DNA of 63,990 nucleotides, filler included, from Kipferlia bialata (lineage: Eukaryota), in assembly GCA_003568945.1 (NCBI GenBank). It is 5 parts of 5 records of this genome, joined end to end, with 100 filler letters (N's around TTAATTAATTAA, not from the genome) between each part and the next. Parts side by side here need not be neighbours in the genome. Positions count along the whole stretch, not along the records: positions 45,527 to 60,572 come from BDIP01000748.1; 4 more parts are not named here. One strand, given 5' to 3'. Each line of letters opens with the position of its first letter. The stretch's first letter is position 1. Made by a program: the position numbers and the translations under genes. Below are positions 4,769 through 52,211 of the stretch, piece after piece. A model generated the notes under the pieces. That model saw nothing but the letters and a program-made list of their open reading frames with translations. It did not search any database and was not told the DNA's origin.

Positions 4769-5210
4769 TGGAGTAGTAGTGACTGGTTCTCAGGACCAGT
4801 GGTTCTGCGATAATAAAGTGTCCATGTATTGACCAAGTGGGAGATATTATAGAGTACTGGCTATGGATTTAACTGGTGAGGACCCTTCTCAGTGAGAGGT
4901 GTATGTGTAACTCTGAGGACTCCTCAGTGAGGACACACTATTCTAATTATAGAGTGTACGTACGCAGTACCAGGGTGTTAGGTACATATATGTGTCAGAC
5001 CTATATATATATCTGATTGCAGTTGTGCCTGTTTCTTTCTGAGACTCAGACTCTGAGACAGTGTCACAACGAATGAGAGGTTTCCCTTGCTCTAGCTCTT
5101 CGGGACACTCCTGGGCCCTTATTCTCATTATTGTCTAGACGTCTAGACGTCTTCTCGTACTGAGATACGAGCCGCTTCTTTCATGTGTGTCTCTGCACTG
5201 ATAGGCTCTG

Positions 5211-5670
5211 ATGGGCTACTTTGAGGACAGTGGTGGCATCGACGGCTACGTGTCACGCAACCTCCACCTCTACGGGGTCGAGATGCACGACTACGATGAC
5301 TATGATGACGATATGGGATACGACAGTAGGTATGGTATGGTATAGTTACCTTCTTTGACTATAAGAGGGCTCTAAGTGAGTATATCTGATGTATATGTAT
5401 ATGATACGACAGTGGGTATGGTGCCTTCCTTCTTAGTGCACACTCCGCATGATATCACATCTCTCTGCTTATGTGACACATTGAACATCTATTGACACCA
5501 GGCACTGTGATGACTACTGCCATGGCATACTGTGTGGGCTGTGCAACAGGGTGTTCAGTGTAGATGCCCCAGAGGGTGAGTGGCAATGATATACATCAAT
5601 CAGAGTGCCCTGGTTCTTGTAGTCAGTCTCACCACCAGAGTTTGCTGAGCACCTCGTCACAGACCACAAG

Positions 5671-5706
<36 letters not shown>

Positions 5707-7376: not shown

Positions 7377-7414
<38 letters not shown>

Positions 7415-8204
7415 CATGTTTACGTTTACGTGTCTCACAGTATCCCAACGCATGTGATGCATGCCCTCGTGTATTGCATATATTGTATTATAGAGATTGT
7501 ATCATTATTTTTAAGAATTTCCGAATTAGTGAATAAATGTGTATTCTATTATTCACCTTCTTCTCACCCAGCTATGATGCAGACGACTACGTGTTCACGT
7601 CATTCGCTGAGGTCAGTTTTGTAGTATCTATAGAAATTACAGTTTACAATTCTAATTAGATAGTAGTTATAATTTGTGACCCCAGCTTGTGGCCCAATGA
7701 GCACAGGTGCCAAGGTTATGATATACTTACACACTATAAACTATATACGTCATTATAATAGCTTGTGGCCCATGAGCACAAGTGCCATGGCATGGTATCC
7801 TTCTCTCTCTCTCTATATATATATATATAAAAATATATTATTATATATATATTTGTATATATATATATATGACCCCAGCTTGTGGCCCATGAGCACAAGT
7901 GCCACGGCATGCACACGCACAAGGCAGAGTGCCCAGACTGCCACAGGTACTCTCTGTAGATATATGTGTATATGTATGTATGTATGATATATATATATAT
8001 TTATGTATACACTGCACAGTATATCCAGACTGATGAAGACACACAAGGCAGAGTGCCCGGTTTGTCACAGGTACACATACTCTCTCTCTCTCTCTGTCTC
8101 TCTCAGACACACACTGTCTCTCTCTCTTGCACACCCTATCTCTCTCTCTCTCTGTCTCTGGCTCTCTCTGAGCCACTCACCCCAGGCAGTACATCTCCCT
8201 TCCC

Positions 8205-8236
<32 letters not shown>

Positions 8237-8821
8237 GTTTCGTGTGTATATATGAATGACCCCAGGCAGTACATCTCCCTCGCAGCATGTGTGCAGCACA
8301 GCAAGACAAGGTGCCACATATACCATATATATATAAACATCCTCTATGATATAGTATAGTATGTCATGTACTCAAGGTGCCACCCCGTCATATACTCTAT
8401 CATATACTACTATATAGTATTCTTAGTGTTATACTATAGTATAATACCATTCTATTATGTTATGTGTACAATAATATATTAGTAAAATTCATATCCCCTC
8501 ACATATGAAATGATATGTAATGTATATAATTCATACAATACAATATCTAATTACTCACCGCAGTGGATGTCGCCTGGACGTGGCAGCTGTGTACAGACAG
8601 AGCCTCAGGTGGGTACACAGGGTGTATAATAATGTATATTTTAGTATGTGTATATGTGTTTAGTACATATGTATATGTGGATGTATGTAAATAGGTCATA
8701 TGTATATATCATATGTATATTTATGTATGTGTACAGACAGCGCCTTTGGTGGGTGCACTTTGCAGTCATGCTCTAGTTGAATCAACACCTGCTCTCATGT
8801 ACCCCCCCCCCTCACCTAAGA

Positions 8822-8856
<35 letters not shown>

Positions 8857-10728
8857 CCTCACCCTAGGGTTGCTGACGACCTCCTCATGTATATATTTAT
8901 ATAATACACATTATGTTTTATATACATTCCATATGTATACTCCCTGACTCTGATCCTACACTCACCCTAGGGTTGCTGACGACCTCCTCATGTCACTCCC
9001 TGACTCTGATCCCGGGGCATATGACAGAACAGGTACCAGCCCTAATATTCATTGTATATAATATATTTAATACAATATATATATTATATACACCATATGT
9101 ATACTCCCTGACTCTGATCCCGGGGCATATGACAGAACAGGTGTGTAGGGATATATTTGTATTGAGTACTGGTACCATCCTTATAAGAATACATACATAG
9201 AGAGAGAAATACTCCCTGAGACTGATTCTATGCACAAGTACCAGCCCTAGTATTCATTGAATAATTTATATACAACACATGTTAGTTATTCCATATGTAT
9301 ACTCCCCGACTCTGATCCCGGGGTATATGACAGAACAGGTAAATAGGGATATGGATGTATATACACACACATATATATACACATAGCAATTGAATATATT
9401 GTCTCCATCCAGAGATTACATAGGGTGTATACCATAGATAATGATGCTGATACTGTCTCTTTACTCTCAGGGGAGGACCTACGTGCAGCCGTGAAGAGAC
9501 AGTGGGAGAGAGTGAGGTAAGACAGTAACATTCGTTGCTATTCTCTTTGATCATATCTACCTCTACACCGGCGAGTGTATGGACCGACCACGATGTGGGT
9601 TTCAAGACCTCTCTCCATCTATTTTGTCTTCTTTTCAACCACATAGAAGGCTCTCTATTCCAGCCTGAGCACTCAGAATGTCTTTCCGCATTTGTATATA
9701 TAAATGTATACATGTATGTTATCCCATTTCCCCAGGCTTTGGGTACAGAGGGTGACTTCTGATACTCCCCCCCATATTATATATATATATATGTATGTAT
9801 GTATACTTACCCTAGGAACTGGGAGGAGAGTGCTGTTGTCAAATACTCTCCCCATATATATTTATGTGTATATACACTACTATATACATACTAATATATC
9901 TCCCTACTAATTAGTGTCAATATACGCTGACCATAGGACTACAATATATATACACTTACCCATATATATATATATATAAATATATATATATATATGCTGA
10001 CCATATGAACATGGAGGAGAGTGCTGTTATCAGACACAGGAGCAGGATAGACTATATACATTAGAGATGGTGGAATATATATATATACATGTATATACTA
10101 CTATCCCCTTACTCCAGGAACTGGGCAGAGCGGGGATCTAATATCATTATATATTTATATATATATGCTAACCCTAGGAACATGGAGGAGAGTGCCATTG
10201 CCAGGCAGACACAGGAACAGGAGAGGCTCTCCCTGGCAAAGAGGCGGAAGGTACCTGCTACCTGGTGGATGATGGTACTCCCTTGAAGTATTTCATTTCT
10301 TGTATGAAGATGTATTCTATTAGGACGAAGACGTTTCTTTTCTTTCTATCAGTCTTGCCAATAGAAGGAAGGTACCTAGTAGATGGTTATTCTCTCTTAC
10401 TATCAGTCTCTATCAATCTTACACTCATGCAGGTGACATCACTATGCGGCTGTTTGTTCCCTCTTGAAGATATGTAATTCTTACTTACAGTCTCCATCAA
10501 TCTTACACTAAGGCCGGAGACATGACCGCCTACTCGGAGGTGCCAGAGGACATCTACGATGTCACGGCCAAGGTATCTCATTCTCTCTCTCTCTCTCTCT
10601 ACACCCTTTAAACCAGATGTCACGGTCAAGGTGTATATACTCTCTCTCTCTCTCCCTGTGTGTCCTACCTCTCATACTCTCTCTCTCTCTCTCCCTCTCT
10701 GTCTCTCCCTCCCAGGGGGCCCCAGCTC

Positions 10729-10764
<36 letters not shown>

Positions 10765-11173
10765 CCCCTCTCTCCCATCCCAGGGTGCCCCAGCTCCCTT
10801 CCTCTTCTGCAGACACAGAGGCCCAGTCACAGTGACTGCCATAGGGTTAGAGGAGTGCCTAATATACATATACATATATCATTTATCACAGAGACAGCCA
10901 TGGGGTTAGAGAAGTACCTTTATGTACACATCTACATTCACCATATTACTAGTACTAATGTTATATATATAATACAATCTTACATAAGGATAGAGAAGAC
11001 CAAGGACCCATGCGACTTTTTCTTCACTCAGGACTGTGTGCAAGGTATGCCTCCACGTTATCCATATTTATATACATATACATTGTACCTCTCTGACATT
11101 GTACTATGCCAATTTTCGCCAGGTATCTCTCTCTCTCGCTCGCTCTGTCTGTCTCTCTCTCCCTTTTCACACA

Positions 11174-11219
<46 letters not shown>

Positions 11220-14200
11220 GTCTGTCTTTCTCCCCCCCTTCTCACTGTAGACTATGCCAGACATCTCCACCTGGTCCATCGGGAGGTGGCCTCTCTCTAC
11301 ACCTGGGACGACAGTGGCCTATACGCAGACGACCAGGTATTTGACTACATACTATTCTACTAATTATTTGACTATTTACTAATTATTTTGACTATTTACT
11401 ATTTTACTAATTATATATAGTCATTAACCAATGATCTATATGTGTTACGACAGTGGCCTATACGCAGACGACCAGGTATGTGACTATTTGACTAGTTACT
11501 ACTATTCTAACTATTTATAGTTATTAACCAATGACATATATGTGTTACGACAGTGGCCTATACGCAGACGACCAGGTAACTAAATGTCTGACTTTGAATT
11601 ACTTCTACTAGAGTATTATTTACCAATGACCTGTATGTGTGTCTACTATTCCTGGTAGTATTTCAATTAGTGATTCTTTCCACTGCCATAACGGCAGCCT
11701 ACCTATACTTCAATGGTATATTGTATGTTGCTGACCCCCCTAGTATGGCGCTGAGTCCTTCTGCGATGACTACAAATATATATACAAGTATTTATAATCA
11801 TATGTATATATATGAATATATGTATAGGTGATTAATTCCTTCTTTTCTTATGCTAGTATGGCGCTGAGTCCTTCTGCGATGACCACGAGTGGTACCCCAG
11901 GCCAGTGATCTCAGAGGTCTTCCACTGCAGGTGCACTTCCCCTCTCTCTCCCTCTTTACCTACCACTGTAGGTGCACCCTCTCTCTTTCGGAACCTACAT
12001 CATGTATAACTCATTGCTTCGACACTTCCTCTAACACCCTGATACTGATACTGACACTAACATGTGTTCCACTGCAGGTGCACCTACTCTCCCCTCTCTC
12101 CCATCTCTTCCGTCTTCCCCTCTTTCCCCTCTTATTTCTCTTCCCCCTCTTTCGGGGCCTACAACATGACCCATTACTTCAACCTTTCCTCTTCCTCTTC
12201 TCTCTCTCCTACTGTCCCTGTTACTCTGACACCCAGTAGGTGTGCCCAGGTCTTTGCCGAGTTCAACGAGGTATATATGTGCATATAATTATGGTGTATT
12301 ACATATATATGTCTCTCTCACATGGACTCTCAGTCCCACATCTACCTTCAGATGATCACGCACGAGCTGCGTATGCATAGGATGCACACCAGACCCGCAC
12401 GGTGCAAGACCTGCGAGAGGTACAGACTATGTATACTTTCTCTCTATATATGACTATAAATATGACTCTATATATATATGTACATGTATGTATACTATAT
12501 GTATATATATGTGTGTGTGTGTGTTTACTATATATCCTAGTGGATGTCCCGCGAGTGGTACTTACTAGACTCGTCCACACATAGCCTGGCTCATATATGT
12601 ATATATTGGTGTATACTGTATATATACTAGATCTGCACGTTGCATGTCCTGCGAGAGGTACAGACTATACAATCTCTCCCGTGGTACTGGACTCATCACC
12701 ACATAGCCTGGTGTTCCTGATTGCCTCTACGCTTCTTCCTCGGATATATATATATATACATACCATGTGTATACTCACAACCAGAGACTTCCGGCGTCAC
12801 GCAGACTACATCAAGCACACCAGGGACAGCAAGTGAGTACCCACTACATCTAGTACACGTCCCTACACTAGAAATACCATTTTACACTGTATTAATTATC
12901 TACCATGCTAATTGTTTAACATACAGGTACTGCAGCACCGACTTCAATGACGCATACGCCCAGAGCATTGGTGCAGAGAAGCCATCAAAGGACGTCATAG
13001 AGAACCTCCTCAGAAAGAGTCAGGACAAGGTTTGGGCAGACCAATAATGCATATATTCTTTGAAGCTACAAGGAGCTGGGACTCACATTAGGCTCGGGCC
13101 AACTACAACGCAGCCCAGGCGAGATACAAGGCGTCTGAGCCAGCTAGGAAGGCGCAGATGAAGGCGAGAAGGGAGGCTGCGTCTGATTACGGGGCAGAGT
13201 ATGAAGAGACAGAGGAGGAGACTGAGGGAGAGAGTGAGAGTGAGAGTGAGGCAGAGGTTCCCAACCCGGTCACGACTGCCTCTAAGGCTCCAGCTAAGCC
13301 AGTGGCCGTGAAGGATGTCGCCAAGCCCGTGGCAGTTACGCAAGTCGCCACAGCTCCTACCACCACATCCGTACCTGCCACTGCCACTCCTGTAGCCAAG
13401 CTTGCAAGTGGTGTTACCCCTGTATCCACCACAGCTGCACCCACTGCATCGGACTCTGTGACTCTCTCTCGTGATCAGTACAACTTGCTGTGTGCCCAGG
13501 CCAAGAAGGGAAGAGAGGCAGAGAAGGAGAGAGAGAAGGAGAAGAAGGAGGCAGAGGCTCAGCAGGCAGCTCCAGGTGCCCCGCCTCCTCCTGGTCCCAC
13601 CAACACCCCCTACGACTTCCTTATGGCTCTGAAGCCACTGAATAAGTGTGTTACCGCTCTCGATGAGTGCAGGAGAGCCCAGGCTCTATACCGTTCTCTG
13701 CCCCAACCTATCAGCCAGGTACTGGGAAAGGCCAGTATATATATAGATGTATGTATTAAAATATATGTATAAAAATATATAATATCCAATACCGGTCTCT
13801 GCCGCAGCCCATCAGCCAGGTACTGGGAAACGCCAGTATATATATATAGATATATGTGTATATATATAATATCCAATACATATAATGCCCCAGCCTAACA
13901 GCCAGGAGACGACAACGGCGCATGAACACCACGCCTCGTACATGTACATCGGCCTCACATACAAGGCATGGTATTGCTATTTATACATATATGGTATGTT
14001 AATATAGATACATGATATATATAATACAAGGCACGGCCTACACTGCAATATATATAGAAATGGATATAGATAGATAGATAGAATATAGTGATACATATAC
14101 ATATACTGGTACTAATGTCAGGCAGGGGCCCAAATTGCTCTCTCTCTCTATAAATTTATACAGACAACTAGATAGATTCAGTGATATACATATACATATA

Positions 14201-15097: not shown

Positions 15098-15197
15098 NNN
15101 NNNNNNNNNNNNNNNNNNNNNNNNNNNNNNNNNNNNNNNNNTTAATTAATTAANNNNNNNNNNNNNNNNNNNNNNNNNNNNNNNNNNNNNNNNNNNN
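15098..15197. other. Artificial contig linker
   Basis: 100 nt of N-run, TTAATTAATTAA (stops in all six frames), N-run. Confidence 0.97.
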
Positions 15198-15456: not shown

Positions 15457-17358
15457 TCAAGAGATGTATGGGACAGCAGCTGCAGCACCCATCTCTCTCT
15501 GTCAACAGCATGTGTAGGGTCGAGCTTCGCACTCTCTAGCAGGCAGAGTAGGGCCTTGCACTCGGAGGGCAGTGTACCTACGTCAACACCGTCATCGTGG
15601 AGAGAGACGTAGTCTTCCAGAGTGCGGAGGCAACGGCTCCGGACAGATAGGGGTTGCTGACCCGCACCGTTGTCGGTCTCGAGAGTCTTGGTCTGGACCC
15701 CTGTCTCTGAGGGTGTGTTGAGGGCTGCCTCCTATGGTGAGGAAGTACGAAGATGGAATGTACATGCTAATAGAATTATGGCAGTTACTACCGTCCTGTG
15801 GCAGCAAGGAATTCAACAGTTACCTGATGGATGTTGATGCAACTGCTGCTCCACATCAGGTCCTTGAAGCAGCGTGTGGCGGTCCAGGCATTGATCTCCT
15901 CCCTATCATACACACCCTTTGTACGCACACTGAGCTGGGGTTAGGACATGGCTACATCTATTGACAGTGTTGGAGTACGAATGAGGACCAAGTGTGTCAA
16001 CTAAGGTTGCATTAGTGATGATGGGGTACGCATATAGACATGAGTAGAGCCCGTACCCTATCATCCAGCTCTACAGTCAGCAGAGGCACATGTACCCCTG
16101 TTGCTAGGTATCCCTCCTCAACTGTGTCAGTAATGCAGTGTCTCACACGTATATATGCATAGTGACCAACAAGACTGCCACGTACCTGGGTATTGGAAGC
16201 CGTTGGATGCTGTGAGATAGAACACACCGGCCACACTCATATCCAACTCCGACACCCTGTTCTCGGACTCCCAGGTGATGTCAACGCTCTCCCCCCACTT
16301 GTGCACGAGGGTATACTTGTACTCTAGGTTCTGTCTCTCCACCCCACTGCATCTGACCCAACCACTGTACAGATGACATGCAGCGTTGGCTAGGGTCAAG
16401 CCCCCGTTGGTATTCCAGTCGCCAAGCTCCGGGCAGTTACCAACCACCCTGACCTCGTGGTTGGCACGGACACAGGGGACAGAGACACAGAACCTCACCA
16501 ACACATCTCCAGGGCTGGTGGGGAGGGGCAGAGGTACAGCCAGAGTCCTAGGTCTCCGGATCTCGATGCCACTCCTGAGTATCTCGCAATCAACCACTGC
16601 CTTTTCTACACAAGGGACTGCCTGCCACTCGTCTTGGACAAGAACACTAGGGTAGCCAGAGGGCACGTTGACGACCTTCTTGGCACCAGCCTCCCCCTCC
16701 ACTCCCCCTTCCAGTCTCTTGACAAAGTATGAGTAGGAGACGTCTCGGTCCGTGGGTAGGTCTACAGTTGCACTCCATTGGTCTACAGTAACAGTAGACT
16801 CCTCATTGTACTGCATCTGGATGGGAGACCCGTCAAGGCCGAGAGAGGGGACATCACCAACCATGTACACAGCCTCTCCAAACTTGCACTTAAAGATGAC
16901 TCTAAAGGTGACAGAGGAGGTCCCCACACAAGCGTCTGACAGGTTAGTGGATGGATAATCCAGAATGAAGGGAAATTTGCACTAGATGGTGTCCTGAGGA
17001 GTTAGTCTGCCAATTATATATCTAACGTATGGTAATTATCTAATAACGGAGTACCGCTGTAAGCCATATAGGGTCAAACAGAGGTCATGCATGAATACCC
17101 GATCATAAGGATGGGGGTATACAGTGGACTGTCAAAGGCTAGTATGCAAACTAGTACTAAAACCCACTCACCTACATCTCTCTCAATGCACAGAGAGTCC
17201 GCACAGTGTGGACCAGGGCCCTTTCTGTCACTCCATGGGTTGGTATCGGGACCGTGTAGACCCCCCTTGTCATCTGTGACAGGACCACCCGTGGGTCCAG
17301 GGCGTGTCCCTGGAGGGCGTGAATCTCCCAGGTGAGAGACAGACTCGTCAATAGGCAT
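15457..17358 (-). CDS. Tandem CBM20 (starch/glycogen-binding) protein, DPE2-like but without a recognisable GH77 catalytic core
   Basis: ORF 16127-16927 has two CBM20 repeats (VTFRV...GEAVYMVGDVPSLG...W...YSY; VRFCVSVP...VRVVGNCPELGDWN...LEYKY...WES). Three short in-frame exons follow, ending at TGA 15457-15459. 5' exons are tentative. Confidence 0.7.
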
Positions 17359-20779: not shown

Positions 20780-21038
20780 CTGGAGGTAAGGGAAGAGAGA
20801 GAGAGAGAGAGAGATAGGAAGAAGCTAAGCCTTGTGACAGATAGAGCACTCCGAATGATATGTGCCTGAAGAAGGACAATGGAATCAGGATAGGAAGCGA
20901 GAGGATGAGAGAGGGGTGGAGAGAGAGATAGGGGAGAGACAAGGAGAAGGGGGGGGGGGGGGGGGGAAAAAAAAGTGGGGGTGGGGGGGGCCCCCCCCCC
21001 CCCCCCCCCCCCCTCCACTCACCTTCCCTCACCCTCAG

Positions 21039-23082
21039 TCTCTCTGGCTACTGTGTCTTCAATGCTCCACTCAACAGCACGGTCACCCTCTCCCTCTCCC
21101 ACCCCACTGGTGCATCCCTATCCATGCAAGTGGACGTGGCTGGTGTTTCTACCTTCATAGGCCTTGTTCTCAGCCCCGTGACCCCTGATGGGGACATCAG
21201 GGTGACCCACTCTGAGACACACTCTTTCTCAGGGGTCCTCGCCCCCTCCCAGTCTCTGCTGTCCATTCTCTTAGGGTATCAGGACACCGATCACCCCAAT
21301 GCAGCACAGAGACTGTGTCCAGTCACTCTCCCCCCCCGCACTCGTGCCTCCTTCCCCGCTGGCACCAAGTACACCCTGGTGATGGAGAGCGACACCTCCC
21401 TCCCCGTCTGTGTGTCCCTGGACCTCGACCCCTCGGACGATGTGCCCCTGGTGCACACCTGCCCCAGTCCCAAGGAGCTGGTGCCTGTGGCCGTGTCCCC
21501 CCCCTTCACACACGCCCAGGCTGTGTCCCCTCTCCCCTTTGCCTCCTTCCCCCACCTCTTCCTGATCCCCTCGGCCTCAGACACCCAGGGGGGGGACGAC
21601 ATCACCATGTCCCTGTGGGCACACCCCAATCAGGCCGAGGGTGAGTGTCCCCCCCAGCTAGTGGGTGTGGGGTCTCTGTCCCTTGCCTCTGAGCATCATC
21701 ATGACGGGGAGTCGGAGTGCCGGCTGGTGGTGCCCACATCAGGGAGGGTCAGTGCCACTGTGTGCTACACAGGCATAGTCACCAGCCAGCCAGAGGACTT
21801 CACCCCCCTCCTCACCCCCCACCACAACTCGCGCCTCTCCGCCTCCTTCACCTCCTTCATGAGACTGGGCCACAGGGGGTGTGGGTCCAACAAGAGGCAC
21901 GGCCTGGGGCAGCACGTGGTGCCATTCTGCGAGAACACCGTGGAATCTAGCAGGGAGGCCCGGTCTGCTGGGATGGACGGCATTGAGTTTGATGTGGTGC
22001 TGGGTGCCGACGACGTGTGTGTCATCAACCACGACTTTGAGGTGGAGGTGCGGCAGGGCTCCTTCACATACAACCTGCCCATCCCCGTGCTGGACTCCCC
22101 CACCTTCCTGGCCCTGAGGTCTAGCAGGGCCATGCGGGACAGGCGGCTCAAGAAGGAGAAGGAGAGGGCACAGGAGGCGTCTCTTATCGAGGGCAGGGCG
22201 AGGGCCTCGTCGTGTCTCTCTCTGACTGACATGGGGAGGGATGCCGAGGCTGCTGTGAGACAGATGCAGGCCCAGGCGGCACAGGCCCAGGCACCCACGG
22301 AGGGATCATTCTCCAAGGAGGGGTCAGAGGGGGAGGACGAGTCCCACCGCTACAACGTGCTGTTCAGCCAGCGTGCCACTCTCAAGGACATGCTCACCAA
22401 GTGTGACAGGCAGTGCAGGTGCGGTAGCCTCTGGATACATCGCGTGGCATGTACTGTGATGTTAACTCTATACTTTCTGTGTACTATATATCCGGTCCCT
22501 CCTCACCTCAGGATGAATGTGGAGGTCAAGTACCCCACCGGCTTCTGGGCCAGGGGCAGCAAGAGGGTCCTGTACCCCAGGCGTGACAAGGTGGTGTCCA
22601 CCACCCTGGACACCGTGCTGCACTCCACCCTGCTCAAGCACAAGCACCTCAGGACAGTATTCTTCAGTGCATTTGACCCCGACCTGTGTCTCATCCTGAG
22701 GTATGCACCATGTCTCACTCATTGACATATATATATACATTGTATCTCACACCCCAGGGTGAGACAGACCAAGTACCCAGTCTTCCTGCTGCACTGCGGA
22801 GGCTCCTTCTTCAACGAGTGGCCCGATGTCCAGCCAGACCCCAGGTGTGCCTGTCCCTGGCTGGGACTGGCCTTTGCGGCACGTGCCAACCTGCCTGGCA
22901 TGGTTCTATCTGTCAAGACCCTGGCAGAGGTGGGGGATGAGTTTGTGCCCAAGGCTGCTGCCCTCGGCATCAGGATCCTCACATACGGCTCTCTCTCCGA
23001 CGATATCGAGCACATTGCGGCCCAGCACGGCCATGGGGTGGCGGGTGTCATTGTGGACCTGGCACTCAGGACAGCCCAGTAG
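21039..23082 (+). CDS. Glycerophosphodiester phosphodiesterase, GDE5/GPCPD1 (Gde1)-like (5' end missing)
   Basis: GDPD motifs HRGCG, ENT..S, GMDGIEFDV, INHD, NVEVKYP, FFSAFDPDLC..LR..QTKYPV and GVAGVIVD. Introns at about 22419-22511 and 22702-22777. Confidence 0.85.
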
Positions 23083-28999: not shown

Positions 29000-29556
29000 G
29001 ATGCCTTTGCGTTGTGTACCATCTACGGTATATGTAGTTGACCCTGGGTCCTTGTGTTTAGAGGCCTCTGGAATAGATAATGACCCTATATGTATGCTGT
29101 CGTTGTATGACTTGTGTTAGTGTTGTGCATCGGATGGAAGCATGAGGTTGCTTCAAGTTATCAAGCGGAGTTGACTGGTGAGAAGTATGGCAATGAGAAG
29201 TCTCACAGACGAAGTACACATACTCTTTAGTGACTCTCCCCCACTGATAAAACCATGCGCGGCAGGCTAGAGTGTTTCAGTTCAAAAGGGGTGTTCTTCC
29301 CTACTACTTGCAGAACGCGGTATAGTGAGCTGTTACACTCGAGGTTCAAATAGTGTATGACAGCGAGTTACGGTAGGCCTATGGTATCCGAAGACCTTTC
29401 TTTTCGGAAGAGACAAAAGGTCTGAGAATTGTGGCTGGGGATGGCGACTGAGAGCCACTCGTCTATTGAGTGGTCAACAGCTGGGGAAGGTGAACAGTGA
29501 AGGGCGATGTTTCTTTCAACAAACCTTTCTCTCTTCGACTACAGAGACCTCCCAAG

Positions 29557-30150
29557 ATGACCCCCCTTCCCTCCATGCCCGCCCCTGACTTCACCGTCGA
29601 TGTGCTGAACCCCGACTACTCGTTCGGCTCCGTGTCCCTCAAGGACTACGCCGGCAAGTACCTCGTCATCCTCTTCTACCCCGCCGACTTCACCTTTGTG
29701 TGCCCCTCCGAGATCCACAAGTTCAACGACAACCTGGAGCGCTTCCGTGCCGCTGGCGCCGAGGTGCTGATCGGCTCCACCGACGGCCCCTTCGTGCACC
29801 TGGCCTGGACCCAGACCCCCCGTGCCGAGGGCGGCCTGGGCAAGATGGCCGTGCCCCTCTTCGCTGACCGCAACCTCAAGTTCAGCCGCGACTACGGTGT
29901 GCTGATCGAGGACGCCGGCCTGTCCCTCCGCGGCATGTTCATCATCAGCGACAAGGGCATCCTGCGCCACGTCACCGTCAACGACTTCCAGGTCGGCCGC
30001 AACGTCGAGGAGGCCCTCCGCCTAGTGCAGGGCTTCAAGCACGCCGACGAGACTGGCGCCGGCATCCCCTGCGACTGGACCCCCGGCTCAGACACCATCA
30101 TCCAGGACCCAGAGGGCAAGAAGGAGTTTTTTCTCGAGCACCAGAAGTAG
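29557..30150 (+). CDS. Typical 2-Cys peroxiredoxin (AhpC/TSA, Prx1 subfamily), intronless
   Basis: FYPADFTFVCPSEI (peroxidatic Cys), GGLG, RGMFII, GRNVEEALRLVQ and resolving Cys in IPCDWTPG. Very strong C/G third-position bias. Confidence 0.95.
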   Translation: MTPLPSMPAPDFTVDVLNPDYSFGSVSLKDYAGKYLVILFYPADFTFVCPSEIHKFNDNLERFRAAGAEVLIGSTDGPFVHLAWTQTPRAEGGLGKMAVPLFADRNLKFSRDYGVLIEDAGLSLRGMFIISDKGILRHVTVNDFQVGRNVEEALRLVQGFKHADETGAGIPCDWTPGSDTIIQDPEGKKEFFLEHQK

Positions 30151-30265: not shown

Positions 30266-30365
30266 NNNNNNNNNNNNNNNNNNNNNNNNNNNNNNNNNNN
30301 NNNNNNNNNTTAATTAATTAANNNNNNNNNNNNNNNNNNNNNNNNNNNNNNNNNNNNNNNNNNNN
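30266..30365. other. Artificial contig linker
   Basis: N-TTAATTAATTAA-N, 100 nt. Confidence 0.97.
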
Positions 30366-30633: not shown

Positions 30634-32645
30634 CTTGCCCTGTCTACACCTACAGTTCTGAGGGTGCCAGTGTGTGCAGCCCATGTGCAGACGGATACGC
30701 CAGTGGAATAGGTATGTTCTCCATACAGCTAATACTTATCTCCCTCTTCCTCTAGTACCCCCCTTCTCTAACACTAGAGTACACTGTCTGTGTTGACTCT
30801 CTTGACTCGCTCAACATATATACACTTTCTAACTTTAGTACTAATCATTGTGTCACTCTATTCTCCATCTATTTTATACCCTAACCCTCCAGGCTACACT
30901 GTCTGTGTGGACTGTCTGGTTGAGCCAGACCTGTGCGAGTGCGGCGCAGGTACAGTGGCACTATATTACGCAGATTTTTATAGAGAGAGTGCGGGGAACA
31001 CTTCTCTCACCAGTGCCAGTTTCACATACTTCTGAACTACTATAACGACACCTCCAGCCTGACTGTCGACATATTTTTCTCTCTCTCCCTCTTTCTCTCT
31101 CTGCATATCTATATATACATACTCACTCCAGGCTACTACACGGATACCTCCATCTTAACAGGGGATAGATGCCAGTCATGTTATATATACGTATACGCAT
31201 ATGTTTATGTATATATACCCCCACTTACCCTAGGCTACTACACAGATACCTCCATCCTGACTGGTGACAGATGCCGGTCATGCCCAGCTGGGTCATACTG
31301 TGCCATTGGGCAGAAGTATGCATGCACAGGTATACACATATAGTATATGTAGAGACATAAATATATATATATAGAGAGAGAAAGAGAGAGAGAAAGCGGG
31401 AGGGTTGGGTCGTACTGTGCCATAGGGGAGAAGTACTCTTGCACAGGTATATGCACATCTCTGATACGCATATATCGACTCAAGTTTCCTAACACGCACT
31501 CTCTCTGACTCCAGGAGACACCTATAGCTTTGGTGGCGCCACTGAGTGCTCGGACTGTATAGAAGGTATTTGTATATGAGAGACAATGTGTATGTATATG
31601 TATGTATGTATTCATATGGATGTACATATATGTGTAAGGGCGCCACTGAGTGCTCGGACAGGATAGAGGGAGGGTATCCATAGAATCATTATATATGGCA
31701 TATATATACTAACCTCAGGTTGGTTTTGTTCCGACGGCATTGCCTTACCATGCCTAGACAACACCTATGCAGACACTACCATATGTGTATACAAATGAAC
31801 GTCGAATATACCCTTACCATCTAGGCTGGCTCTGTTCCGATGGCATTGCCCTGCCCTGCCTAGACAACACCTATGCAGACACAGACAGTGGCACATGCAT
31901 AGACTGCATAGACGGGTACATATGTACAGACGGTACGTCAATCGTGTATTTGTATTCTATTTAAATACAATCTCAGTTTCTTTCTTTTAGTCTCATGTAT
32001 CTAATGCCCTAGGCCTCCTTGACCCGTGTCCCGTTGGCTTCTACCACTACACCTACGACGAGGCATATGAACCATCGGAGTATGAGGTACATCGCATACG
32101 ATCCTCGTATTGGATTCTTGCAGTCATAGAGGCAGCTGTATTTTGCATAGCAACATATCATAGACATATATATATATGTGTGTGTGGGTGGGTGTTTGGG
32201 TGTAGATAGACTAAATACAATAGACCGCTTACTATACACTCACCCTCCTAGGCCCTTTTCCCGTACCAATGCATCCCATGTTCACCAGGGTACATATCAA
32301 CATCAGAGGCATCCACAGAGGTAGATTTGATACATGTACATACCTGTATTGTTCGTTGGTATTATATGAAGTGTGCTATTTACTCTACAAGTACACTCAT
32401 CAACAGTGGAGGCATCCATAGAGGTATGCATTCTTGTATATATACATTTGCATGCGTGTATTGTTTACTGTATAGTAATCATAGTATATGCTCCCATGGG
32501 CACATATATATACATATATACATCTATATCAACCACAGAGGCATCCATGGAGGTATACATACTTGTATATATGAGTCTTCTCTCTGTCTTTAGTATATAT
32601 ACTGACCCCAGTGCACCGTGTGTCCAGATGGCCAGACCTCCAACT

Positions 32646-32684
<39 letters not shown>

Positions 32685-33620
32685 GTATACATAGTACTGA
32701 CCCCAGTGTACTGTCTGCCCTGATGGCCAGACCTCCAACTATGTCAGAGATGCATGTGTGGACTGTAGGGCTGGGGCATACTCTACAGGTGTGTAAATGT
32801 TTGTGTGTATAATATACATGAACAATTCTCTCTCTGCAAGTGCCTCTCTCTCATATGTAGGTGGCGCTGCCTGCTCCAGCTGTGTTGCTCGCTATATGCT
32901 ACTTCACTAATTTACTTAGTAATACTTCACTCGTCTCTCTTACCCTAGGTGGCGCTGTCTGTTCCAGATGTAATCTAAGCTATCCCTCTCTCACACACAC
33001 ACTCTTTCGCATTACCTATATACTTACACTAGGTGGCGCTGCCTGTTCGAGCTGTGCTGCTGGTACCTACAGTGACAGTGGGGCAGATGGGTGTACAGAC
33101 TGTTTAGCTGGAACGTATTCAGAGAGGTACTGGTGCTCCAGTAATATTCATCTCTCCTTCCTCTCTATCTACTTCCCTTGATGTCTAGGGGGTCTCCCAC
33201 CTAGTGACTGCGTGGGCTTCCCTGATTATATACTATAGTAATACGTGTTTCATTACTATCCCTAATATGTAGGGGGTCCCCGACCTGCGTGGACTGCCCT
33301 GCCGGGTACTACCAGGACACAGACGCACAGGGGGAGTGCATAGCATGCCCAGCCAATACATACAGGTATGTCAGGGTTGAATGATTAATTTTTGCATATA
33401 TATAAGCTCTCTTCCCTTACTCCCAGCACTACAATATTATCGGGTTTCTCCTCATATATGCCAAAAGCCTCTGTAGGCCCTCTTTTGGCTTTCAACTTAG
33501 TGTCACATATCATCCATCTTTCTGACCCCCAGTACCACAATCGGGTCCTCTGACCCTGCCCTCTGTCTGTCCTGTCCAGATGGCACAGTCAGTGACGAGG
33601 GGAGCTCAGAGTGTGTGTGA
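30634..33620 (+). CDS. Cysteine-rich CxxC-repeat protein (GCC2/GCC3 or ephrin-receptor-like, VSP-like), 3' part
   Basis: Spliced exons give repeated C..CPAGTY...C units: CRSCPAGSYC, CIPCSPGY, CSSCAAGTYS, CVDCPAGYYQD, CIACPANTYS, CLSCPDGTVSDEGSSECV* (TGA 33618-33620). Confidence 0.8.
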
Positions 33621-41500: not shown

Positions 41501-42908
41501 TACACCCTGTATCAGTATCAGTATCAATAGATGTGTCGTACTAGTATAGCGTACTGGCAGTACTCAACCCAGGATCTGTTGAGCTGGGCCCGCTACGTGA
41601 CTTCCAGCCCAACCAGGTCACGCTTGTCACAAGGTATTTACGAGTATATATGTTATTCATAGTCATACCGGTTTGAAAACGTTCCACTTACTCCCTAGCT
41701 CCTCAGTGCCGATATACTATACGTTTAATGAATGATTTTATTCACATGCATATATATATATTAGGGAATGTTATTGTATAGGTATGTCTCAACCAAGCTC
41801 CTCCTGTGCCGATATACTATACGTTTAATGAATGATATATATACACATGTATATGTATATATATATATATATGTGTTTTTGTATAGATTTGTCTCAACCC
41901 AGCTCCTCCTGTGCCGATGCATGCTCTGCTATGGTAGTGAGTGTACAAGCCCAGGTACCGTGTGTCTACTATATTGGATAGTGTTCGCAAATGTATTAAG
42001 TTTCCTTGGCCATGAATAGTATTCGCGAACGTTGTGTGAATTATGTTTCTCTGGATTAATTTGTGTTGCCTATTCTAACCATCAGCGCCTGGGTAGTGTC
42101 CTGACTATTGGCCTTGATGGCCAGTACTCAGCTGCCACCAAGACATCAGTACTAGAGGACATGGGGTACAAGAGATCAACCACCATGGGTGAGTGGTATG
42201 TATATAGAGTGGGAGGCATAGTACTGTTTTACGTGTTAAGTGTTTCGAGATTCCAGTCTTGTTTACGTGATAGTCCAAATACAATAGTACATCCACAATT
42301 ATGGTTCCCTGACCTCCAGGTGTGTTCACTGTCCCCCTTGCAGTTGGTGACTCCTCGGTGCCCCAGGCAGAGACAATCACAGTGAGGTATATATATACAT
42401 ATATGTATACTGATTCTGCGGTAGAACGTGCATCTGTATGTTACTTGCTCTGTTGTAGCATGTCAAGGTATGTCATTCTTGCCTCATATTCAGTGATGGA
42501 TCCAACAGTGCCACCGGACATGTCCGATGGAGCAACTCAGCTGATGAGAGTGAAGATACTGTCATTGGTACGTCTGTATTTGCACGTATAGATGTATATG
42601 TATACTGCACAAAAGTACCCCAAGCCATGGTCATTCATCCCCACTCTCTCGGAGAGACTCCCTTTGTATACTATATTGTCATATACCACTCTCTTTCTCA
42701 TAGGCACTCCCCGCTGTTTTGCCCATGTCGCGATCTTATAATTTCGTTACGTAACTGCGAATACATTACACCTCTTCTGACTCCAGACTCCACCCTTGCC
42801 CTTTATGCCAATGCCGTCATCCTCTCTCTCTTTCTATATATATACATATTAACATATTCACTCTAGACACCCCCCTAGCCCCCTATGACAATGCCCTCAT
42901 CCTCTCTC

Positions 42909-45426: not shown

Positions 45427-45526
45427 NNNNNNNNNNNNNNNNNNNNNNNNNNNNNNNNNNNNNNNNNNNNTTAATTAATTAANNNNNNNNNNNNNNNNNN
45501 NNNNNNNNNNNNNNNNNNNNNNNNNN
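45427..45526. other. Artificial contig linker
   Basis: N-TTAATTAATTAA-N, 100 nt. Confidence 0.97.
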
Positions 45527-45571
<45 letters not shown>

Positions 45572-48271
45572 GAGAGATACCATCTCCCACTCAGAGGGAC
45601 ACTGACGTTTAGGGGCTCGAGGGAGAGAGAGAGAGAGCAAAGGCCGGAGTGGGACTACCATCTCCAGCAACATCATATATATACGCAGAGAGAGAGAGAG
45701 ATGTCACCTTATCCTTGAGCTTGGCAGGTGTCACCAGGAGGAATGGTCTCTTGCCCATGCTCTCCCACCTGATATAAGACAGATTGTAACAACATATTGT
45801 AATATATATAATATATAATGAATATTCAGTAATATGAATATTAATGAATATTAATGAAACACGGGTATTGAGAGAAAGAAGAAGGGTCTCTTGCCCATGC
45901 TCTCCCACCTGATATGAGACAGATTGCAATGACACATTGCAATTTATAGTAAAAAAATATAATATAGCACAAGTGATGAGAGAAAGAAAGAAGAAGAGAA
46001 TGTTCTCCTGCCCATGCTCTCCCACCTGGTGTTAGATGGATGAAAGTAGAACTATACACAGATGTGTAAAGTATAATTATATGTGTGGCACATAGCGGCT
46101 ATAATAATAGATATATAGTTGCATAGACTTATCAGAGAGAATAGTATATATCTGTATACCTGGTGGTACATTACTACAGAAGTTCTCTAATATAGTAGTC
46201 TAGTAAAGTAGCAATACAGTAGAAATCTTATACTAATATTTATACATATATAATATATAAAATATATATAATATGTATATTATATATGCTAAGAATTATA
46301 CCTGATGGTAGCACACCGCAGCTCGCGTCTGATGGTTCTAAGGACATCGTTGAGCTCCGACTGAAGATGAGACGATACAGCCTTATACACTAGTGTGGAT
46401 CACATGAAATGTTACACTGCAGTACATATTTAGGTACTATTAGCTGCGATATATATACTACGATTCACCATCTAATATATATACTCCTAAATAGTTATAC
46501 ATTGTCCAATACCTCCAGGCTCTGCCTCCTCTCCTCGATGTTGTACATGTCCAACCATACCAGTACCATTATTATATTATATATATATTATATTATGTAT
46601 ATATACTGAAGTATTATACAGTATATTACACTATCTACCTCTAAGCTCTGCCTCCTCTCCTCGATGTTGTAACTCTCTAGTCGATGTCATATAATGTATC
46701 CATAATACTATACTATATTATACTATGTACCTCTAAGCTCTGCCTCCTCTCCTCGATGTTGTACATGTCACTCCCAGGGGCTGCAACAAGGGTGATGGAC
46801 CTTGCATTAACATGAAAAATTATGTAAGGTATATTATGTGTGGATTATCAGCCAGTCACATAAAGATGGTCTCAAACAATTGGCAAGAGAATTATACACT
46901 CACTTGTCTGAGATCTACCCGTAATATCATCTAAATACATCTACACGATAATTACTACACGATACACTCACTTGTCCGAGTTGAGTGTGACATGGCTGGA
47001 TGTGACATCTACAAAAGTATCATCTACATATAAATATATATCTACACGATAATTACTACACGATATACACTCACTTGTCACTGTTGAGTGTGACATGGCT
47101 GGATGTGACATCAACCAGTAGTATCATCTAAATATAGTAATGCATCTATACTATATTACTACACGATATATACTCACTTGTCACTGTTGAGTGTGACATG
47201 GCTGGATGTGACATCTACATAAGTATCATCTACATATAGATATATATCTACACGATAATCACTACACGATACACACTCACTTGTCACTGTTGAGTGTGAC
47301 ATGGCTGGATGTGACATCTGCCATCAACTGACCCAGGCTGTCCCAGACAGGGGAGGCAAGGCCTGGGTATGAGGCACTGTGTCTCCTAATGTATACACAG
47401 ATACATATATAAATATATACTAGTATAAATATAATGAATATATATATATAAATATATATATACCTTCTGATATGAGTCCCTTCTCCCCTGCCTCCATGGC
47501 ACTGTGTCTCAGTGACTCAACCTTGGCACACACAGAGGACAGAGCATGTAGGAGCCTAATGGGTAAATTGGGAGTATAAGTATACATATATATATATACT
47601 TATATATTATATATATATATTTATTGGCAGAGACAGAGGACAGGGCGTGGAGGAGCCTATTGTTAGTGCACTATTATATACACATATGTAAATATAGTAG
47701 ACACACATATATATAATAGCTGTGAATGAACCCTAGAGGACACAAGGGACAGGGCAAGTAAGAGTCTATGGTTAAGTGGGAAAATTAATATATACATGAT
47801 AGTAAGTATAGTTTACTGTGCAAGGCAAAGTAGTAGACAGGGCATGTAAGAGTACGTGATATAGTAGTTATGGATAATACATAGTGCAAGAATGTAAACA
47901 ATATATATCAATATATATAAGTATACGAATAGTCCTCTACCCCGCCATCTGGGCGTCTGAGTCCACCACAGCAGGAAGTATAATAAAGTCCAACATAGCA
48001 CATATCTACCTCATATATCTAATTAATGTATACATATATATCTGTGTGCATATCCATGAATGATACTATACTATACCTAGCCATCTGGGCGTCTGAGTCC
48101 AAAGACATATTGTGCCACAGAGTATATATATATGTACCTTATATGAATATAGTATCTATATATATGTGTGTGTTATACCTAGCCATCTGGGCGTCTGAGT
48201 CCACCACGGTGGTGGCCCTTCTGACCAGGAGGGGGATGTCGGGGACAGCTGGGAGTGAAAAATAGAGTCAC

Positions 48272-48305
<34 letters not shown>

Positions 48306-51300
48306 TATATGTAGAGAAGAAAGACACACGCACGTGAAACGCATAAATAGTATATATAGTCTGTGGGATATTAGTATATAGGGTACCTGCCACAAACTGT
48401 GCCAGTGTCTGTCTGTAGTCTGCACTGGACAGGATGCTAGAGATAGAGCGGTGCCTAGGGGTGAGACAAAACTGTACCAGCAATAATTGCCAATTGTTTT
48501 GCACCTTCCAATCACACGTGCCTTGCGGATATCATTCTGTCTAACTATAATCTATATAATCGTTATGTATTATTAATCTATGTATTCTAGTTATGTACTA
48601 GCACATAAATAAGGTAGTTCTTCTAATCACATGTACCTTGCTGATATCATTCTGGTGTCCCTCAGTGGTCTTAGCAGCCACTGCCTCAGTAGGCGTCTGG
48701 GATGAGAAGAGAGTGGAATACACACATACATAATACACACATACATAATATAGGTAGTGAAATGCCGATACAAGAGTGACATCTCGCTATGTATGGTACT
48801 TGTGAGCGTCACTATAGTGTATGATGTTACATACATAAGACACCATACATCCCCATGCTAGTGGCACAGTGTTATATATATACCCACTATATCATACACC
48901 TTATAGCACATAGTATACTGTACCTTCCCATGCTTGTTCCACATCTGTCCAATACGTTGGTTGTGATGTTGAAATATGAAACGTGTATACATATACACAT
49001 GCACTGTACCTCCCCATGCTAGTTGCACATCTGTCCAGAGAGGCCAGGACACTCGCAGAGCCCTGTACTCTGAGGGTTAGTGCATAATACACACCATATA
49101 CTACAATATCATAAATGTGCAATAACACCGTATGATGTTAAGTGAATGGACATCAGTATGTAGGATACACTATACTATATATACCCTATATACTCTACAT
49201 ATACCATTCACTTCATACCTTGTGATGTTTTGTGTATCCACCAAGGACAGTCCCAATATGGCAGACCCATCCTCATCATAGCTCTCTCTCTCTCTCTCTC
49301 CCTCTCTCCATATATACATATATATATGTGTGTGTGTGTCTATACTACTCTTCATACCTTGTGATATTTAAGGCATCCACCAATGATAGCCCTAGGATGG
49401 CAGACCCATCCACATAGCAGCTATCTCTCTCTCTATATATATATAAATATATATTCCCATATATAAATGTCTCTATACATTCATACCTGGTGATGTTAAG
49501 AGCGTCCACTAATGACAGTCCCAGGATGGCAGACCCATCCACATCACAGCTCTCTCTCTCTCTCTCTATTTCTCTCTATCTATACATCTATATATTCATA
49601 CAAATACCTAGTAATGTTCAGAGCGTCCACCAAGGATAACCCTAGGATGGCAGACCCATCCACATAGCAGTGGGTGGAGGCAATGTCATGGCCGGGGACA
49701 AACCTGGAGTAAGATATATATGGACATCTATAAATGTAGATATATATATATGTGTGTATAGATAGCAGTGGGTGGAGGCAATGTCATGACCTGGCACAAA
49801 CCTAGAGTAAGAGGAATATGTGTATAGGTACAAATTATATCGATGGACAGGGAGTGCAGGTATACAGATATACATATGATATACACTATACACATATATG
49901 TACTATATATAACTATACATATATATGTACTATATACCTCAGGTCCACCCTCTTTCCATCGATGGACAGGGAGTGCAGGTACTGACCAACTAGCCAACCC
50001 GCATGGACAATACTCTCTCTCTCTCCCTAGACGTTAGGGGAACACACACATATGCTATGCATAAATATGTAACTATCTACCTGTACACATACGTGTATAT
50101 ATACATATGAAAGCATATATAGGTATATATATACATATACACATACCTCCCCTACCCCAAATGCACTGACAGCAGCAGCCAGCTCAGAGCCAAGGTCGCC
50201 TTAGGATTAGATGTGAAGTATGTGCAGTTCCTGAAGCTATATATATGTATATATATAATAATAATATATATGTATATAGCCAACCGACAGCAGCAGCCAA
50301 CTCAGAGCCAAGGTCGCCTAGGGGTAAGAAAGAGACAGGATATAGTGCTGATTCCACCATTGGTCGTCTTAAAAACATGTTATACATATTAGAAGAATAT
50401 CATATGTAATTTGCACTAACCCAGTGAGTCGAATGCCGCTGTGGCTGTCTCTGGGGCATCCTTCACAATGAGGTGCCTGGGAGTTAGTACATCCACACTA
50501 CACACCTACTACATGATATGTACTGGTACTGATACTGTAGATACAATGTAGACCCAAGATATACATAGTATATACTATCTATATACAATACCTGCTACAG
50601 TCCACTGCACTCCTAAGCATCTAAACATGACACTAGATGAACAGAGTAAATATGCACTATCTATATAGTACCTGCTAGAGTCCACCGCACTCCTCAGGAT
50701 GCGTCTGACCTCACCAGACACACCGCAGGCCAGGATCTCTGGGGATAAGATTATGTATTACGATATAGGATATATACTGTATTCATTTATACAGTAATAC
50801 ATATATATGTGTATCCACACCACAGGCAAGGATCTCTAGAGATGAGTTTAGAGATCAACTACCGGTGTATATACTGTATGAAGGGGCCGACACCAGAGTA
50901 AAAGCTATCGACACACACATGATTATAGTGTGTATTCATACATATACATATACACACACTTGCTGGAGCTCTCAAGGCCAGTGGCGATATAAGTACGCAC
51001 AATTAAGTACTAAATGCCATATATATATAAATATATATATATAAATACATAAATACATATATTCATACATACATAAACACGAATGCATACCTGCTGGAGC
51101 ACTCAAGGCCAGTGCCGATATCAGTGCGGCATGGGAGGCAGAGAGGGCAAGGTTCTCGAGGGTGGCTGAGAGTGAGACTCAGAATGTATAAGTATATACT
51201 TCTGTTGAACAGTATACATTATCAAGAGAGAGAAATACAGCGATGGGAGGCATGGTAGCCAATCAATATTATGAGTCCCACCATAGCAATTTCACCAGCG

Positions 51301-51661
51301 AATAATAGAGTTATATGCTTCCTACCTGTGTTTGTGACTGGGTTGTATGCATAGGATAGTCATATACAAGAATACTTATACATATAATAGTATATATACT
51401 TGTATAATAATAAATATCCTAGTATAACAATATGCTTCCCTACCTGTGTTTGTGACTGGGTTGTATGCACAGACTGATATCACCCCTGGGCTAGAGGGGT
51501 GACAGGAGACACCAAGGAGACCGGAGCGGCGCATGCCTAATGTGAGACATGCTCAAATCATATATATAGTAAACATCTATATATTAATAAACACATATAT
51601 ATCCTTTCCCACTAGCAGGTCTGGGTCATCCACGGTGCCTGGCCCTATACAAATATGTACA

Positions 51662-51697
<36 letters not shown>

Positions 51698-52176
51698 TAT
51701 GTATATGACTATATATTTGTACATAAATACATGTCTATGCATAAATACCTACTAGCAGGTCTGGATCATCCACTGTGCCTGGGCTCAACAGCTCAACACA
51801 GATACATTCAATATAAACATACATATATATATATATGTGTACTATTAATTCAAGTCTATGTATAACTACCTACTAGAATATCTGGGTCATCTATATACAT
51901 ATATATTAGAATACTAACCCACTAGCAGGTCTGGGTCATCCACTGTGCCTGGGCTCAACAGCTCAACACATATAATTTCAATATAGACATATAAGTATAA
52001 GTATGCGCATATATACATATGTATTTATATATTCAGATTATNNNNATAAGTATAAGTATGCGCATATATACATATGTATTTATATATTCAGATTATATAC
52101 TCACCCACTAGCAGGTCTGGGTCATCCACTGTGCCTGGGCTCAACAGCTCCACACATATAATTTCAATATAGACAC

Positions 52177-52211
<35 letters not shown>

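Follow-up and report, generated by a model that had tools for sequence, protein, structure and literature searches.

Genomic context

The window, meaning the whole 64 kb stretch of DNA that was analysed and to which all echo counts below apply, joins five contigs of the Kipferlia bialata draft genome through filler runs at 15098-15197, 30266-30365, 45427-45526 and 60573-60672, where N's stand around TTAATTAATTAA. K. bialata is a free-living fornicate and a relative of Giardia, and according to the genome paper the draft of 51 Mb was assembled from short reads with SPAdes, is divided into 11,564 scaffolds, contains 124,912 GT-AG introns and shows two k-mer peaks that were read as diploidy (PMC5874029).

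The minus strand of 45581-58250 carries a many-exon MSH6-like gene, KIPB_003755, which is partial and runs to the contig end. Its annotated protein (Kipferlia bialata, 818 aa, partial) is a 100% match to exon 5 of the gene, contains the Pfam domains MutS_I (8.7e-26) and MutS_III (4.2e-19) and matches two metagenome homologues at 26-29% over about 550 aa. Domains I and III place the host gene in the MutS family. It is probably of the MSH6 subfamily, judging by its motifs and the alignment to distant MSH6-like proteins. An exact spliced parse of the protein on the window gives 29 exons and a last piece, and the annotated protein agrees with the intact exons.

Elsewhere in the window lie an intronless peroxiredoxin (29554-30147, +), with a best other match of 63% in Dysnectes brevis, and a predicted cysteine-rich repeat protein with CxxC motifs (30634-33610, +). 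A 596-codon open frame (61214-63004, +) with the motif HNDLHLGN...DFD is presumably kinase-like. Likewise, judging by motifs, 5205-13970 (+) is presumably a cysteine- and histidine-rich multi-exon gene, 16127-16981 (-) a starch-binding-like frame and 20932-22725 (+) a glycerophosphodiesterase-like frame.

Exon 20 and its partial copies

Exon 20 of the MSH6-like gene is accompanied by partial copies of itself in the adjoining introns. Such copies of exon ends are called echoes here. The features around exon 20, in the direction of the gene, are as follows.

49938-50026 (-): exon 19, upstream neighbour of exon 20, from the spliced parse
49839-49862 (-): internal echo lacking both splice sites, an exact match over 24 nt to the middle of exon 19
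49802-49820 (-): branch-like motif and AG before the 5' echo, CTTACTCTAG; the intact exon has CTTACTCCAG
49762-49801 (-): 5' echo, the first 40 nt of exon 20 with no GT after it, from sequence comparison
49608-49703 (-): intact exon 20, 96 nt, encoding FVPGHDIASTHCYVDGSAILGLSLVDALNIT, from the spliced parse and alignment to distant MSH6-like proteins
49550-49607 (-): spacer 1, with the real donor GT, an AT-rich intron head and a (GA)n end at the copy 1 junction
49487-49549 (-): 3' echo copy 1, 63 nt, followed by GT
49421-49486 (-): spacer 2, with GT, (TA)-rich, ending in (GA)nTAG
49358-49420 (-): 3' echo copy 2, 63 nt, followed by GT
49282-49357 (-): spacer 3, with GT, (CA)n(TA)n and a (GA)n end
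49219-49281 (-): 3' echo copy 3, 63 nt, the most distal and most decayed, followed by GT
49010-49069 (-): exon 21, downstream neighbour, with two 3' echoes of its own, from the spliced parse

The recoded copies reported in the initial annotation are present, one 5' copy upstream and three 3' copies downstream, and GTATGAA directly follows each of the latter. The 5' echo (49801-49762) has the three silent changes described for it, all within its first 13 nt, the remaining 27 nt being identical to the exon. Over the stretch ILGLSLVDALNIT, copies 1 and 2 each differ from exon 20 in 8 of 13 codons (9 of 41 nt) without any amino-acid change, just as had been claimed, and the Y>D replacement placed upstream of this stretch in copy 1 was found near its inner end, beside 10 silent differences in all. 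Copy 2 is identical to the exon over its first 31 nt and then shows 9 silent differences and no residue change. Copy 3, said to add replacements, does so at 5 of its 20 codons, two of them within the quoted stretch. Four versions of GSAILGLSLVDALNITR had been proposed, and three of them stand; copy 3 reads ...VDTQNITR and is therefore not a version of this peptide.

Copies 1 and 2 differ from each other at 12 nt, 11 of them silent, which has a p of about 1.5e-5 if both are dead. Over the last 11 codons, exon and copy 1, exon and copy 2, and the two copies differ in 7, 8 and 8 codons with 0 residue changes, while full saturation is expected to alter 6.7 codons; recoding beyond random saturation is thus ruled out. 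Copy 2 matches exon 20 throughout the inner 9 codons, in which copy 1 has 3 differences.

It had further been proposed that the 3' echoes begin at TGCTAT, where the 5' echo stops, so that a deletion at this microhomology would rebuild a recoded exon. This holds for copy 2 (CTGCTAT) but not for copy 1 (CTGTGAT) or copy 3 (CTATGAT). By its sequence, a join of the 5' echo with copy 2 at the 7 nt CTGCTAT would yield an exon of 96 nt, in frame and flanked by both splice sites, but such an arrangement is not general. Among the 12 exons with both kinds of echo, the relation of 5' end to 3' start ranges from a 7 nt overlap to a 27 nt gap with a rank correlation of 0.01, and the ends match no better than by chance scaled to exon length (p 0.09), the value against absolute echo lengths being p 0.0003. 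The exact repeat of 31 nt shared by exon 20 and copy 2, which a window-only check found to be the longest in 49000-50030, would be a far better deletion substrate than 7 nt. The AG within (GA)n that was said to precede the 3' echoes is not a general feature either, as 5 of 51 are directly preceded by AG.

Echoes across the window

The catalogue rests on 104 modelled exons, 29 of MSH6 that are fixed by the annotated protein and 75 from our own predictor. The predictor gave 116 exons, of which 15 doubtful ones were dropped, and 3 were added by hand; the frames outside MSH6 are predictions. Echoes were found by anchoring at GT or AG, hence the catalogue is blind to echoes without such a site. In total, 99 echoes adjoin their own exon at 53 of the 104 modelled exons of the window, 46 of them at 20 of the 29 analysed MSH6-like exons. 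They are absent from the peroxiredoxin (29554-30147) and from the long intron-poor ORFs of the window. An unanchored all-against-all test of MSH6 placed 56 of 78 matches on the same strand and in the adjacent intron; the other 22 (non-adjacent or antisense), together with 2 of the 56, belong to the (GA)-rich exons 5 and 6. Relative to their own exon, all 5'-end copies in MSH6 are upstream and all 3'-end copies downstream. Local direct repeats number 159, of which 145 touch modelled exons or echoes; the remaining 14, judged by eye, lie at splice junctions or array spacers.

Echoes are 15-63 nt long and never extend over more than 66% of the exon, leaving 18 nt or more of it uncopied in every case (65 exon sides). 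A spacer of 27-336 nt always separates an echo from the exon or from the previous echo, and the echo unit has a median period of 105 nt (99 echoes). Intron length tracks the echoes at about 128 nt per echo (r 0.82). The period is tight, with 96 of 99 at 75 nt or more and exceptions at 49, 68 and near 75; it resembles the length of short echo-free introns, and spacers are seldom below 40 nt.

The splice sites of the echoes are comparable with the real ones (donor 8.5 versus 8.3 bits, acceptor 9.3 versus 10.0). A YTNAY branch-like motif within 16 nt of the AG was seen at 42 of the 48 real acceptors checked and at 41 of 48 echo acceptors. A second splice site at the inner end is rare, with AG directly before 5 of 51 3' echoes and GT directly after 1 of 48 5' echoes, so the echoes do not represent exons in their own right. 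Alternative exons were rejected, as was non-canonical splicing at the inner ends. Former intron positions in mid-exon are likewise ruled out, neither GT nor AG being present there. Paired capture of an intron with both flanks was rejected, as the numbers of 3' and 5' echoes per intron, by eye, are often unequal. If a whole exon had been inserted into a broken one in a single step, the 5' and 3' ends should match, for which support does not go beyond p 0.09. Microsatellites are not enriched exactly at the inner junction, where the profile is flat.

Within arrays, one junction is common to the units. Two cases are listed here.

51611-52442 (-): largest array, at least seven 3' echoes of exon 13 (52595-52514)
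46972-47010 (-): third 3' echo of exon 26, identical except for serine TCG versus the exon's AGT

Five echoes of the exon 13 array share one junction, and the full-length ones differ mutually at silent sites only. A 55 nt duplication surrounds NNNN (52042-52045) at 51989-52099, where the copy number is uncertain; the NNNN is probably a scaffolding gap. Echo 1 of this array is exon-like in its coding part, but its spacer is homologous to the one in echo 4, an echo of the other codon type, and the pair (52288-52442 and 51798-51967, -) looks like a conversion tract confined to the coding part. At exon 26 (46895-47010, -) the same serine codon is AGT in the exon, TCG in the third echo and TCA in the short fourth echo, a codon-box switch that sits in copies otherwise identical to the exon. 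Near-perfect tandem units of exon end and intron flank (82-94% matches) occur at 58639-58852, 11387-11578 and 41697-41918 (all +), with periods of 80, 100 and 105 nt, the first two belonging to exons outside the catalogue. Some echoes can be mistaken for exons: a parse of the annotated MSH6 protein through the echo at 55025-55002 (-) is just as good, and the echoes at 50285-50317 (-) and 31719-31784 (+) were taken as exons by the predictor.

Coding-level signal in the copies

In the 46 MSH6 echoes, 105.5 of 135 differences are silent, the three codon positions carry 25/15/98 changes, and pS of 0.29 and pN of 0.026 give the formal dN/dS of 0.07 that the initial annotation had named as a check; the signal of protein-level selection is real, and echoes that carry coding-level selection could be swapped in by recombination. 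For the 53 echoes of other genes, whose frames are self-predicted, 79.5 of 153 differences are silent (p 0.31 at a null of 0.5), with codon positions 38/35/89, pS 0.22, pN 0.062 and dN/dS 0.24. The highest silent rate outside MSH6 is that of the cysteine-rich frame at 30634-33610 (pS 0.35, dN/dS 0.13). The null was a dead copy beside an exon that accepts silent changes only, simulated with the same detection. The MSH6 value was reached in 0 of 400 simulations under each of three mutation spectra, and the value of the other genes in 10, 15 and 27 of 400. Restricting MSH6 to the nearest echo per exon side and leaving out exons 13 and 20 gives 35.5 silent and 16.5 replacing differences (p 5e-6; p 0.004 at a null of 0.5). 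The dead-copy null is therefore rejected for the MSH6 echoes, and the silent excess of the other genes is weak.

Several further features concern the kind and place of the changes. Those private to the nearer echo, where the exon agrees with the farther one, are still third-position biased in MSH6 (3/4/15), and nine codons show silent swaps of two or three bases (8 Leu and 1 Ser, AGT/TCG). The silent differences are clustered (59 adjacent pairs versus 33) and are skewed toward the splice site. In a two-state model of MSH6, every echo starts near-identical at its inner end, at 12% of saturation, and switches one way to 83% of saturation, the second state never being left. Residue changes per codon are 0.047 in the near-identical and 0.033 in the near-saturated state, and the likelihood gain for the nearest MSH6 echoes (30.1) exceeds that of all 25 within-echo shuffles. 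In the 14 units with the best-conserved intron flanks, divergence is 0.133 in the flank, 0.114 at third positions and 0.040 at positions 1-2, flank alignments in low-complexity DNA being rough; a flank that diverges like third positions, with positions 1-2 far lower, is the pattern of two alleles. Flank identity and silent rate are not correlated across echoes, which is neutral for an allele model.

Signs of present decay

When compared with random single steps, the residue changes of the echoes are not more conservative; 3 of the 96 are stops, so many echoes are without present constraint; the 5' echo of exon 7 has a frameshift. The GC-to-AT bias is 56:26 at positions 1-2 and 80:64 at position 3, the latter not supporting a directional codon shift. 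Across 57 echoes the silent and replacing rates are uncorrelated, and with distance from the exon the replacing rate does not rise (0.046, 0.041, 0.037) while the silent rate does. The echoes look dead today. A silent bias together with random residue changes points to two sources of difference, which implies that the silent differences arose while both versions coded and that the replacing ones were added afterwards.

Origin of the echoes

Our tentative preference, held at somewhat less than an even chance, is that the echoes are former working exon ends displaced by imperfect recombination with diverged alleles. The proposal builds on the position, orientation, period and intact splice signals of the echoes, the silent bias in MSH6, the inner identity with outer divergence and the random-looking residue changes, and we infer every step of the mechanism from these. 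An echo would be a tandem duplication of about 105 nt across one splice site. Because microsatellite introns diverge fast, the short exons would be the only pairing sites of homologous chromosomes. A broken end would enter the other allele inside the exon by one-sided invasion and would copy the exon end, the splice site and part of the intron before rejoining its own chromosome without homology, leaving the old exon end in the intron. The overlap would stay identical and the remainder would differ as alleles do. Unequal exchange and conversion at the shared inner part would then produce arrays with one junction and several allele versions. If the spliceosome picks the sites nearest the intact exon, echoes would be tolerated and would decay, and no function would be necessary for them; many young echoes may possibly be plain sister-chromatid copies. 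The proposal is in keeping with what is reported of the lineage: metamonads are said to be without NHEJ, and fornicates to be without Rad51A while keeping two Dmc1 paralogues (PMC8516963), and Dmc1 is reported to recombine mismatched DNA (PMC11514202).

Displacement accounts for the geometry and polarity of the echoes, for the uncopied anchor and for both kinds of difference; the uncopied stretch of at least 18 nt fits the need for a homology anchor. Its weak point is that it needs an allele pool at silent-site saturation and yet with a nearly identical protein. On reasoning, the four mutually saturated versions of exon 20 are impossible from two homologues, and they are unlikely under a simple single-population genealogy. 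The flat replacing rate also counts against it, since decay with age predicts a rise with distance, as does the weak silent excess outside MSH6; the period near 105 nt is left unaccounted for, and microhomology is not demonstrated at the echo junctions. No second allele or isolate was found; the KIPB_003755 protein is alone in its cluster and on one contig. A second Kipferlia-like protein was found neither for MSH6 exon 5 nor for the peroxiredoxin, whose next match is at 63%, and an extant paralogue as donor is therefore unsupported in this fragmented draft. In a metagenome scan with KIPB_003755, 3 of 118 matched stretches are relatives, all of them distant (26-46%). The genome paper gives an assembly size equal to the k-mer genome estimate (PMC5874029), hence the sequenced strain is probably not extremely heterozygous now.

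A different and unlikely explanation is that the echoes are used, a skip or deletion between the identical inner repeats swapping the echo end in, so that purifying selection acts on the echoes directly. The join would be made at the exon-to-echo repeat rather than at the 7 nt overlap and would concern a fraction of DNA molecules or transcripts. Inner identity of 20-31 nt beside saturated, residue-preserving outer tracts would be its natural outcome, as any crossover in the inner part would give an exact in-frame exon; it is also favoured by an exon that has several versions at mutual saturation, by echo splice sites that match real ones in strength, and by a replacing rate that stays flat with distance while the silent rate rises. 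It is opposed by the stops, the random residue changes and the frameshift in the exon 7 5' echo, by the want of a canonical splice route for echoes that have no second splice site, and by the assembled genome being the unrearranged form. A heritable deletion frequent enough for selection would, on reasoning, quickly erase the old versions, and we know of no germline-soma split in fornicates, which counts against use as well. A sequencing run guessed to be of RNA contained a fraction of 0.11 of the words, the expectation being 0.116 from intact exons alone and 0.147 with echoes, which counts as evidence neither for nor against use. That there is a genome-wide reserve of interchangeable exon ends, swapped into the message through direct repeats of 20-30 nt, is likewise doubtful.

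It is improbable that the echoes were dead sister copies from birth and that the silent excess came only from fast-changing working exon ends, one version following another in a relay. This would be adequate for most non-MSH6 genes and for the young, nearly perfect tandem units, and back-mutation at saturation could mimic private changes. For MSH6 it requires a silent rate in the working exon 5.5-10 times that of the dead copies, although third positions diverge no faster than the intron flanks; the third-position bias of changes private to the nearer echo and the silent-only differences among the full-length exon 13 echoes also speak against it. Least probable is an assembly artefact, with haplotypes or strains having been strung together in tandem through microsatellites by a short-read assembler. 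The source is indeed a short-read SPAdes draft of 11,564 scaffolds (PMC5874029), and one array holds the NNNN gap with its 55 nt duplication. The echoes nevertheless begin mid-exon behind unique junctions that no allele would contain, and in all 99 cases order and orientation are strictly kept. At 31 nt, the longest exact repeat in 49000-50030 is shorter than 55, the usual final k-mer of the SPAdes assembler; with this and the unique junctions an assembly artefact is unlikely. A run that is probably of DNA, and that may be the source sample and so non-independent, holds 0.95 of the sampled 31-mers of 46500-52000. A small chance is left for causes beyond those considered.

Comparison with known systems

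A close likeness is the 37-bp VNTR in intron 7 of human F7, in which tandem copies span the exon-intron boundary and the 5' pseudo-sites, downstream of the real donor, are described as functional but silent (PMC1557585). Here too the repeat unit spans one exon-intron boundary and the pseudo-sites are of consensus strength. F7 is, however, one minisatellite locus with identical sites, whereas in Kipferlia about half of the modelled exons are concerned, echoes derive from both 5' and 3' ends in units of about 105 nt, and they are diverged and carry a protein-level signal. Copies of the F7 type, without coding constraint, do not match the MSH6 echoes and are not clearly rejected in the other genes. 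Repair-mediated duplications by SDSA are reported to give closely linked copies, including exons and splice sites, from break repair (PMC2671141). The echoes resemble them in being closely linked to their source (median period 105 nt, adjacent intron only), but SDSA captures proximal DNA anywhere in the genome, whereas the echoes occur at splice junctions only and presumably involve a diverged allele.

Where an intron is gained by tandem duplication, the new intron has a copy at each of its two ends. Such duplication at a proto-splice site near AG/GT is reported to leave exon-like sequence in the intron (PMC3265369, PMC2891723). The echoes, in contrast, bring their own intronic flank, lie within an intron that already exists and make no new one, and this origin is ruled out by the spacer of 27-336 nt that always intervenes. 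Recursive splicing (AG/GT) is ruled out as well, there being no AG enrichment (an AG end in 38 of 51 3' echoes and in 67 of 88 exons). Mutually exclusive exons, as in Dscam and arthropod Mhc, are whole exons with both splice sites and different residues; the likeness lies in tandem versions of one coding stretch with a signal of purifying selection, and the class is ruled out by echo coverage of at most 66%, by the single splice site and by the rarity of a second one (5/51 and 1/48). Silent cassettes (chicken Ig pseudogenes, Neisseria pilS, Borrelia vls) diversify the residues of surface or immune proteins. They share with the echoes partial unexpressed copies, exchange with an expressed locus and a coding signature, but the Kipferlia copies are intronic and a housekeeping gene keeps its residues. 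In ciliates, recombination between the direct repeats that serve as MDS pointers rebuilds a coding stretch upon IES excision. Unlike there, the intact exon is already present in Kipferlia and removal is not needed for splicing, and we know of no second nucleus for this organism.

Among the openly accessible papers listed by the literature searches, no description of these intronic exon-end copies in Kipferlia was found, and 'duplicat' is absent from the main text of the genome paper (PMC5874029). The echoes are apparently unreported.

Implications

The echoes are real, widespread in the window and, in the one gene with verified frames, statistically beyond ordinary explanation. Intronic, unspliceable half-exons with a dN/dS near 0.07 are unexpected. 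Echoes make up much of the intron length in the window and can mislead gene prediction in a much-used reference genome. A reduced spliceosome, with 87 of 174 proteins found, has been reported (PMC6679479), and on any reading about 100 decoy splice sites of consensus strength in 64 kb are a natural test of site choice. If the echoes are used, they would represent a new mode of gene assembly outside ciliates, with half-exons under protein-level selection without being exons. If they are displaced exon ends, one genome would store several past alleles of each exon end, which would mean that a free-living relative of Giardia harbours very high hidden diversity or has hybridised repeatedly; it would also be a visible repair footprint in a lineage without NHEJ or Rad51A, and an undescribed piece-by-piece replacement of exons.
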